Source: Pseudomonadota bacterium
Lineage (GTDB): Bacteria; Pseudomonadota; Alphaproteobacteria; Paracaedibacterales; CAITNM01
NCBI GenBank assembly: GCA_046309815.1
Contig: JBKCOJ010000008.1
Span: 63,856 to 127,855, forward strand
Direction: 5' to 3'
DNA length: 64,000 nucleotides
Position numbers and translations under genes: made by a program. The notes under the pieces are model-generated. The model was given only the letters and a program-made list of their open reading frames with translations, ran no database searches and was not told where the DNA came from. Numbering within the stretch: position 1 is the first letter of the stretch; the number at the start of each line of letters is the position of its first letter. Positions 5,271 through 7,479 of this stretch are shown here, piece by piece.

Positions 5271-7479
5271 GTGAGATCTCTATTAAGTAAATAAATTTTT
5301 CGGCTGTTGGGTTCAATGCAGGAAAGCTGAATCCAACCATTGCCGAATAGTTTTTTTAAATCTGGTTGGTCATGGATGATTTTTTTTAAGATATTTTGTG
5401 GTGCTAAAACTACAGTCAGGAGGCGTTGAGGCTCGTGGTATGCTTCCATATCATTCTTATATAATGATTGAAGGGGTAAGCCGGTCATTAAATCACTTGC
5501 ATTACCTTGCATAATACCTATTTTTCCAGTGATATTTTTTGTTGTTTTGCTGCCACTTCCATAGGCAACGTTATCAACAGTTGAAAATAAATATTGCATG
5601 TTTATCCACTGAGCAACAATCATTGGGGCGGTAAGAATAGTAGTAAGAAAAACACCATCCTGATCTTGCGTATAATCGTAAGAATGCAAAAAACATCGTC
5701 CATCAAGGTCAAGAGAAGTTGTAAGAGCACGTGGTGCTATTATAAATGCAGTATTTCGGGCTAATCCCCATTCCGGTCTAACTTGTGCCCAGTCCCTCGA
5801 ACGTAGCCACGTATGAGTTTCTGCATTTTTTTCTTTTTCATTGTTTTCTAGTTGTATGAATCGCAGTAAGCTGTTTGCTCCTCCAGCTTTCTTTAAATCT
5901 GCTTTAAGCTTATCTATTTTATCAAGAGTTTGCTTGCTATAGAGAGTTACCTGGTCAGTAGTAGTATTATGTTCTGCTGCAATGAAATAAGTATTTTCAG
6001 GGATATGAATACCATTTTTTGCTAGTTCTTTCTTTATGTCTAATCGATTTAAGATAGCTGCAAGTATGCGAGCATTACTTCCTCCGTGCCTTCCTCCACA
6101 CGCTCCGCAATCAAGTGCTGTTGCATAAGCATTATTTTCTGTCGTGCTGCCATGGCCACAAAACACTATAATTGGAGCAAAGTTATTTGTGAGACCTATC
6201 ATTTTTAATGCGTTTTCTGCATATGCATATTGGTCTGTGAAAGAAATACTATCAATTGAAGTCATGATTTCTTCAGGTTTGCGTATAAACTTCATCAAAG
6301 CTGATTTAAGTTTATAAGCGCTTTTTGGAGCTAGACAGCGTAATCCCATCCATATGCCACTTATTAGTCCTAAGGATTCTGCCAATGCAAAAGGAGTGGT
6401 AAAAGTATATTTGAGAGATTGGTAGATTCCTTTTAGTTTACATACTCTGGAATAGCCTTCGAGAGCTTCATCGCAATTATGCTGGGAGCAAGGAGATTCT
6501 TTCACTTCATTTTTAGGTGAAAGTAGTACTGGGCATGATGAATAAGATTCATTGGTAATAACATTAGTAATTTTTGCAGGTATACCAAAAAACCAGCAAA
6601 TCCATAAGTTTGATAATTTCCTATTGATTCAAGATTTTTACGGAAAGGTTCTGAGCGAACATCAATACAAAAAACTAATTGAGCTTCTGGTGCGCTTTGT
6701 GGAGTGATGCTTTGTTTTGCTAAATTTTGAAGTAATTCAAGTCGGTAAGCATTTTCTGTCTCTTGGATTTTTTTTAGTAAGTTATTTTTTGTTTGAGATT
6801 TAGTGATTGCTTTTTTATGAAAACCTATCAAGTTCTTTGCTTCAGGCCACATTAAGATTGTTATAATAAGCCGCATGGCTAGATAATCCAATTGAGAGAT
6901 AGGGTGACAGTGGATATCTAAGTCTGTCCATTCAGTTTGGTATTTTATATATCCGGCCCATCCAGGTAATGTGGTAAGCATGAGTGTCAGAAATTCAAGC
7001 ACTTCTTCCTGTGCAATGCTTAGACATCGCAAGCACTCATTAACCGCATGTTCGGCATTTTCTGGTAGATTTTTAATCCATTCCTGTTTCTTATTGTTAT
7101 TCTTATGCAAGTTTTTATCGTATAAGGCCAGTTTTTTCCATGCTATATAAAAACCTTTGTTCCTAAGAGGCATTGTGATAGTTGCCTGCCCTTCATCCAG
7201 ATAAACTTGTAACCACTTAATTGTTTCACGATTAATAGTTTCCATTTCTTCGGGAATTTCGTCTTGTTGAAAATAAGCTGCCGCTGTTTCAAATGCTTTC
7301 TCGATGGGCAAATCTTCAAAACCTTTCAAAGGATTGACAGCGATCAGGTTCCTTAGTGGCCAGAAAGGAGCAATTTTTTTAAAACTCTCTATCACCATTT
7401 TAGGTATATTATTTATATGATTATCTTCTTTAACGTAATCATTGTTGTTTATTTTTTTGTGTTTCATATTCATACTCAC
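5252..7479 (-). pseudogene. dabA: dabA (DUF2309 family, catalytic subunit of the DAB inorganic-carbon pump) interrupted by a single frameshift; seen as ORFs 6502..7479 and 5252..6505
   Basis: The N fragment ends ...[28 protein letters not shown] and then runs into out-of-frame sequence. A -1 shift at the T6 run (6587..6592) reads GFAGFFGIPAKITNVITNESYSSCPVLLSPKNEVKESPCSQHNC..., continuous with the second ORF (FCGHGSTTENNAYATALDCGACGG...). The fused product would be about 740 aa. It could be a true pseudogene, a homopolymer sequencing error or a programmed -1 frameshift. Confidence 0.8.
6586..6592 (-). other. Candidate -1 slippery heptamer T TTT TTG at the dabA frame break
   Basis: The minus strand reads GGT TTT TTG GTA in the upstream frame. 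The X XXY YYZ pattern is T(6592) TTT(6591-6589) TTG(6588-6586). The downstream frame starts with GGT at 6586. Confidence 0.4.

Follow-up and report, generated by a model that had tools for sequence, protein, structure and literature searches.

A probable young loss-of-function allele of dabA created by a one-base deletion in a T7 tract

In a 64,000-nucleotide stretch of an alphaproteobacterial genome (GenBank assembly GCA_046309815.1, contig JBKCOJ010000008.1, positions 63,856 to 127,855; hereafter the window), dabA, which together with dabB encodes the DabAB CO2-hydration pump, lies in two pieces that are offset by a single base. Why is the gene broken? The initial annotation noticed that the break coincides with a slippery heptamer and offered three explanations: a sequencing or assembly mistake in a homopolymer, a gene that recently turned into a pseudogene, or recoding by a programmed -1 frameshift. 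We find that the missing base is real and that plain loss of function is the probable explanation, in the form of a recent frameshift (null) allele of single origin. This is an ordinary kind of event, common in wild populations.

The break in dabA and its history

The dabA gene lies on the minus strand. Its N-terminal part (6589..7479, residues 1-297) is read in the native frame, and the native portion of open reading frame (ORF) 6502..7479 finishes with ...YGFAGF. The minus strand at the break reads TAT GGA TTT GCT GGT TTT TTG GTA TAC, in which the run of six T (T6) occupies 6592..6587 and appears on the plus strand as A6 at 6587..6592. Beyond the run the ORF continues out of frame for 28 unrelated codons (6502..6588, LVYLQK...KMK; LVYLQKLLMLLPMNLIHHAQYYFHLKMK) and ends at TGA 6504..6502. 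This tail takes the place of the 28 native residues 298-325, and about 13 of these vary little or not at all in a 36-sequence alignment.

The -1 frame is without a stop from 6592 to 5252, and this C-terminal part of dabA (5252..6592) reads FFGIPAKITNV...CGHGS...LDCGACGG...QQIN before its stop codon. Gene callers report it only as 5252..6505 (417 aa), with a GTG start that overlaps the TGA as GTGA. Insertion of one T yields a DabA of 742 aa, or 740 aa from ATG 7473, the start used by gene callers. The read-through protein matches Pfam PF10070 with an E value of 2e-224 over profile positions 105-747 of 747, and public gene calls annotate both fragments as PF10070. The initial annotation had described the ORF, its 28-residue unrelated tail, the A6 run and a stop-free fusion of about 740 aa, and each of these descriptions was borne out.

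To ask whether the T is truly absent, run lengths were read from assembled contigs spanning the run, both in Logan runs (X-numbered) and in individual loci (L-numbered). Contigs from 13 public runs in 12 studies, at a depth of about 5-42, carry T6 without differences (X1, X3, X5, X7, X8, X9, X10, X12, X13, X15, X16, X19 and X20). T6 is likewise found in 10/10 loci from JGI, NCBI, ENA and Logan (L043-L052), where dabA is called as 323 + 417 aa. These ten belong to a set of 22 contigs on which a protein look-up found an identical DabB, and some of their contig names (NODE_, k141_) indicate that different assemblers were used. The contigs of X17 and X18 carry T7 and an intact dabA, with 4-7 single nucleotide polymorphisms (SNPs) relative to the window over 4 kb around dabA. 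Because the same kind of data gives T7 in these two strains, the method can tell six from seven. The count of the A run, which had been proposed as a check, came out as A6 in the contigs of 13 runs, none of these with A7, and as A7 only in the X17 and X18 strains. These counts come from contigs, as the three raw-read runs (X22, X23 and X38) contributed zero reads at the site. T6 is genuine and not a sequencing or assembly error.

Orthologues show the uninterrupted state. The nearest orthologous locus (L001, 78% protein identity), from a metagenome-assembled genome labelled Proteobacteria, has a 742-aa dabA that reads GGT TTT TTT GGT at the site, an in-frame T7. We fetched 42 genome loci, 41 of them full-length at the site, and all 41 pass through it in a single frame and keep the F-F pair (GFAGFFG or a near variant). 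The DNA at the site in these relatives is T7, T6 (after GGA, GGC or GGG) or interrupted by TTC, as set by codon choice. The best 120 protein relatives, at 78% identity and lower, are full length at 702-766 aa. A single frame holding all zinc ligands is absent in the window and 23 other datasets, where the break follows F297, and is kept in X17, X18, L001 and the 41 relatives. Because the relatives are all single-frame and full-length, the alignments indicate that the split dabA is limited to one shallow clade. Alignment of orthologues had been suggested as a further check, and its outcome supports a deletion rather than recoding.

Eight loci that lack the motif were considered as frameshift candidates and rejected, as they carry single-frame variants (GVAGFFG, GFAGFFS/A/L). 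A metagenome-wide search with GGNTTYGCNGGTTTTTTGG for independent frameshifts at this position in other lineages found none that was DabA-like among the at least 120 matches listed, all of which were chance matches.

SNPs were compared on contigs over 20 kb of the window. Six SNPs are private to the window type (2314, 5051, 6693, 12251, 17104 and 17663). Two others, at 7708 and 9270, separate the window type and X16 from X17 and X18. Because these two SNPs group the strains exactly as the T run does, a single event suffices, and the comparison places one T7 to T6 deletion, without homoplasy, on the branch to the window type and the X16/L045/L048 type. With ~120 differences per 20 kb, X18 stands much further apart, and this suggests a root on its side. 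T7 is the ancestral state.

Since the deletion, the T6 clade has come to hold at least two haplotypes, ~0.05% apart, and its members turn up in metagenomes from lakes, reservoirs, drinking water and other sources. Only ~0.7 further mutations are expected in dabA since the deletion, so the absence of decay does not show whether function is retained. SNPs in dabA, dabB and the neighbouring DUF6671 gene are almost all nonsynonymous in T6 and T7 strains alike, and they are too few to detect relaxed selection. At window position 7307, one T6 sub-lineage (X16, L045) carries P58L at a proline conserved in at least 90% of relatives. As a single case, this substitution may be a first sign of relaxed constraint.

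The zinc site and predicted loss of function

We then considered where the break falls in the protein. Read-through DabA aligns to the cryo-electron microscopy (cryo-EM) chain of DabA2 from Halothiobacillus neapolitanus (PDB 9rd0) with an E value of 7e-105. Residues C271 (6669..6667), D273 (6663..6661), R275 and A295 precede the break, which lies between F297 and F298; H443 (6154..6152) and C458 (6109..6107) follow it. Across the 36 aligned sequences, C271, D273, R275, H443 and C458 never vary, and they correspond to DabA2 C351, D353, R355, H524 and C539. Each of the substitutions C351A, D353A, H524A and C539A abolishes DAB2 function (Desmarais et al., bioRxiv 10.1101/476713). In the cryo-EM structure of DabA2, C351, H524 and C539 bind zinc, D353 and R355 form a dyad, and Ala376 widens the CO2 pocket (bioRxiv 10.64898/2026.03.13.711513).

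Counted from C351, the Ala of GFAGFFG is Ala376. The frameshift therefore sits two residues past this active-site Ala, within the beta-carbonic-anhydrase-like domain I. The Cys/Asp/Arg half of the zinc site stays on one side of it, and the His/Cys half falls on the other, together with the membrane finger through which DabA touches DabB. The suggestion that a Cys/Asp pair and a His/Cys pair end up on different fragments is thus confirmed, with C271/D273 on the first and H443/C458 on the second. From this arrangement, the T6 allele is predicted to be a null allele of the DabAB CO2-hydration pump.

The window locus resembles the DabA2/DabB2 pump (DAB2) of H. neapolitanus (PDB 9rd0, 9rd8, 9rd9) in keeping the equivalents of C351, D353, R355, A376, H524 and C539, and in having dabA preceded by a NuoL-like DabB in a two-gene operon layout. 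It differs from DAB2 in the one-base deletion, which falls between the equivalents of F378 and F379, and in the length of DabB, which is 447 aa in the window and 551 aa in H. neapolitanus. The window host is also a heterotroph-like relative of Holosporales and not a chemoautotroph.

Is anything else wrong with the gene? Read-through DabA retains all of the ~180 invariant columns of the 36-sequence alignment. Its only unique deviation is N324, a position with His in 35/35 relatives, and the control range for such deviations is 0-6. Because the invariant columns are all kept and the number of unique deviations is within the control range, the alignment indicates that the frameshift is the only lesion in dabA. 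The N324 codon (window 6511..6509) lies inside the 28-codon stretch that is misread in the T6 allele. N324 is probably older than the deletion, since no SNP is reported at this codon in the T7 strains.

The operon is transcribed. In lake metatranscriptomes (eight runs, X25-X33), dabB and the N-terminal part of dabA, roughly its first third, are covered in seven runs (6846..8833). Downstream of the premature stop, RNA contigs are limited to one piece, 5645..5817, which could reflect polarity after the stop or sparse coverage.

Together, these results point to the following course of events. One T was lost from the T7 tract GGT TTT TTT GGT (G-F-F-G) in dabA, once and recently, probably by replication slippage. 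The T6 lineage has since spread and dominates the samples examined, with the sister strains retaining T7. On this reading T6 is an allele that has lost its function and is still segregating, a pseudogene that has only just begun to form, and the loss was presumably tolerated or favoured. Of the options raised by the initial annotation, recent pseudogenisation is the one upheld: L001, X17 and X18 have an intact T7 gene, the deletion has a single origin and there is no other lesion.

Three observations weigh against plain loss of function. First, the T6 clade has been sampled far more often than T7, and such predominance would be surprising for a harmful null allele, except where the niche makes the pump superfluous or the defect is partly rescued. 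Second, dabB and both halves of dabA show no other damage, and transcription of the operon continues. However, with ~0.7 mutations expected in dabA, there has been too little time for decay. Third, the run at 6587..6592 lies outside both of the regions that RNA contigs cover.

For annotation, dabA here is best recorded as a genuine frameshifted gene, neither to be "corrected" nor to be listed as a recoding candidate. The T6 form would also provide a widely dispersed natural null, or nearly null, allele of a DAB pump beside an intact allele in sister strains. The T6/T7 pair could then serve as a natural contrast for the role of DAB pumps in heterotrophs, outside carbon fixation.

Rescue, tract switching and recoding as alternatives

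If the defect were partly rescued, the persistence of the allele would be easier to understand. RNA polymerase could add an extra U within U6, or the P-site tRNA-Phe could slip by -1 on U_UUU, and some full-length GFAGFFG DabA would be made at a physiologically meaningful level. A small full-length fraction could suffice for some function. One-nucleotide insertions do occur during transcription of A/T runs, but they rise steeply with run length (PMC5574713) and a run of six is short for slippage. In a systematic study in E. coli, most heptamers shifted 2- to 10-fold above background without stimulators, but such heptamers reached ~0.3% at best, and UUG falls in the poorer 'heterogeneous' class of A-site codons (PMC4066793); no stimulator is present in dabA. 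The downstream frame is fully intact, an observation that the youth of the mutation explains equally well. Strains with T6 are widespread, and transcripts of the operon include one RNA contig in the C-terminal part, but the RNA contigs stop short of the run. Weighing these points, we consider leaky rescue unlikely.

Rescue of this type has precedents in Buchnera and Blochmannia, where frameshifts in poly(A/T) tracts are partly rescued by transcriptional slippage (PMC3017870, PMC5009743, PMC5574713). The dabA allele is similar in that an A/T homopolymer indel affects an otherwise intact gene of an AT-rich, probably host-associated bacterium. However, the tracts in those genera are usually at least 9-10 nt long and slip frequently, whereas the dabA tract has 6 nt. 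A bolder version, to which we assign a slightly lower probability, holds that low-level slippage keeps the T6 allele alive: DabAB would still work, though at a strongly reduced level, and this would be favoured in a niche rich in CO2, either inside cells or on particles. If true, this would explain the predominance of the frameshifted clade in the samples examined.

Another possibility is phase variation, in which slipped-strand mispairing between T6 and T7 would switch the CO2 pump off and on. Homopolymer phase-variable (contingency) genes are known from Neisseria, Haemophilus and Campylobacter. As in those genes, the tract has its ON length in some strains and its OFF length in close relatives, here in nearly identical ones. 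In two sequencing runs, Logan contigs also end exactly at the borders of the A run (the left contig of X11 ends at 6592 and the right contig of X14 starts from 6587), which could indicate a mixed A6/A7 population in the de Bruijn graph or, equally, a low-coverage artefact. However, tract length is congruent with the SNP tree, with one change and no homoplasy, and T6 is clean in 13 runs and 10 assemblies. The tract is not special either, as the window holds 39 other coding A/T runs of at least 7. A 6/7 tract is shorter than typical phase-variable homopolymers, and dabA is a metabolic gene rather than a surface or restriction gene. We regard phase variation at this locus as improbable.

An evolved programmed -1 ribosomal frameshift at T_TTT_TTG is very improbable. 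The heptamer (6592..6586, minus strand) does have the X_XXY_YYZ form in the correct phase of the 0 frame, and the -1 frame runs on into the rest of DabA. In this respect the initial annotation was accurate. The heptamer does not stand out from chance: in-frame X_XXY_YYZ heptamers number 198 among the 18,431 codons of the window's 52 other ORFs, ~1 per 93 codons, and ten of these are T_TTT_TTG. Moreover, the loss of a T from GGT TTT TTT GGT necessarily leaves GGT TTT TTG G, so the heptamer carries no weight. It is no more than expected by chance and is a by-product of the deletion. More generally, a deletion in a T or A run of an AT-rich genome automatically leaves a "slippery heptamer", and the pattern alone is no evidence of programmed frameshifting.

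Stimulatory elements were also sought. Downstream RNA folds no better than shuffled sequences over 60 nt (z +0.19, minimum free energy -5 kcal/mol) or 100 nt (z -0.75, minimum free energy -11.5 kcal/mol), in agreement with the earlier impression that no stimulatory hairpin follows the site. Upstream, no clear Shine-Dalgarno-like element was seen by eye, with nothing resembling GGAGG 10-14 nt before the heptamer. The frameshift arrangement is conserved in 0/41 genome loci, and both the closest orthologue and the sister strains have the in-frame T7. The dabA site thus shares with dnaX and IS3/IS911-type -1 sites (A_AAA_AAG plus stimulators) an in-phase X_XXY_YYZ heptamer at the frame change. Unlike them, it lacks a stimulatory hairpin, pseudoknot or internal Shine-Dalgarno sequence, has UUG, a poor shifter, as its A-site codon, and is an arrangement that orthologues do not conserve and that arose by deletion from an in-frame T7.

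The product of a tandem slip would also be wrong. The standard two-tRNA model has Leu added at UUG ahead of the slip. Because Leu enters first, tandem slippage would yield GFAGFLG, with Leu at the invariant F298. The earlier expectation that it would yield FFG does not hold, as FFG is restored only by a slip in the P site alone or by an extra U from RNA polymerase. The choice of codon is unfavourable as well: 'heterogeneous' A-site codons, UUG included, shift less than UUU or UUC, and the 18 efficient under-represented patterns include U_UUU_UUC and U_UUU_UUU but not U_UUU_UUG (PMC4066793). Recoding, as the initial annotation had envisaged it, thus finds no support, given the lack of conservation in 41 relatives, the absence of stimulatory structure and the poor A-site codon.

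A working two-chain DabA, made by re-initiation at the GTGA overlap (6505..6502), was considered and is unlikely. It would lose 28 native residues, including the invariant F298, G299, S315, C316, P317 and P322, and no Shine-Dalgarno sequence precedes the GTG of 5252..6505. A homopolymer sequencing or assembly error hiding a true A7 has next to no probability, since its sole support is the prior that homopolymers are error-prone, and the same T6 recurs in 13 runs of 12 studies and 10 assemblies while the same pipeline resolves T7 in X17 and X18.

Neighbouring genes and host

The intact dabB gene (7476..8819, minus strand) encodes the 447-aa membrane subunit, with matches to Pfam Proton_antipo_M (8e-40) and Proton_antipo_N, and lies directly upstream of dabA in a shared operon. 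A divergent LysR-family gene (8923..9765, plus strand; Pfam HTH_1 and LysR_substrate) is, by its position, likely the regulator of the dab operon. Downstream of dabA lies a conserved neighbour, a DUF6671 gene (4392..5270, minus strand; Pfam DUF6671, 3e-60), with a 19-nt overlap at the dabA stop. The layout of L001 is the same, with ORFs of 449, 742, 293, 392, 277 and 721 aa in the order of the window genes dabB-dabA-DUF6671-metK-tatD-PBP. In L001, a 293-aa ORF at the DUF6671 position likewise overlaps the end of dabA and a divergent 286-aa ORF occupies the position corresponding to LysR, both placed by position rather than by Pfam.

The window is gene-dense with ~40% GC. The other ORFs scanned, about 35 of 52, have complete Pfam domains or are long and uninterrupted, with no sign of truncation; the intact genes include the bc1 complex, ClpB, DnaE, LptD, L13/S9 and TGT. 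The best named relatives of ClpB, at 67-70% identity, are Holosporales, Paracaedibacteraceae, Candidatus Finniella and Candidatus Odyssella. Because of these closest ClpB relatives, we place the host as an uncultured freshwater alphaproteobacterium near the protist-associated Holosporales. We infer that such a bacterium, if it lives with a host and where CO2 is abundant, could afford to lose a CO2-hydration pump.

Five loci (L043, L044, L046, L047 and L051), each spanning 7-13 kb and drawn from unrelated assemblies at JGI, NCBI and ENA, are 100% identical to the window within 1476..14819. This identity points to a remarkably clonal and widely dispersed organism. The organism is also present in 'fungus' and drinking-water metagenomes. 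L049 (GCA_031545005.1) matches the window at 2027..9383 only, and its flanks differ: one holds a 269-aa LysR, the opposite one a truncated PBP and then an ACR_tran gene. From this layout, L049 would be either a rearrangement or an assembly chimera. X18, the diverged T7 strain, also lacks 9 nt at 16461 and has an extra G at 18209, both changes apparently just outside the listed ORFs.

Elsewhere in the window, two adjacent ORFs of 437 and 483 aa (22923..24236 and 24233..25684, both minus strand) have no Pfam match. The N-terminus of the 437-aa ORF resembles a signal peptide, the ORF carries trypsin-like His/Asp/Ser motifs (TTAHSV, YDIAIL, SMSGSS), and its product may be a secreted protease or effector. 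A 789-aa ORF at 31409..33778 (minus strand) has only a weak TPR match.

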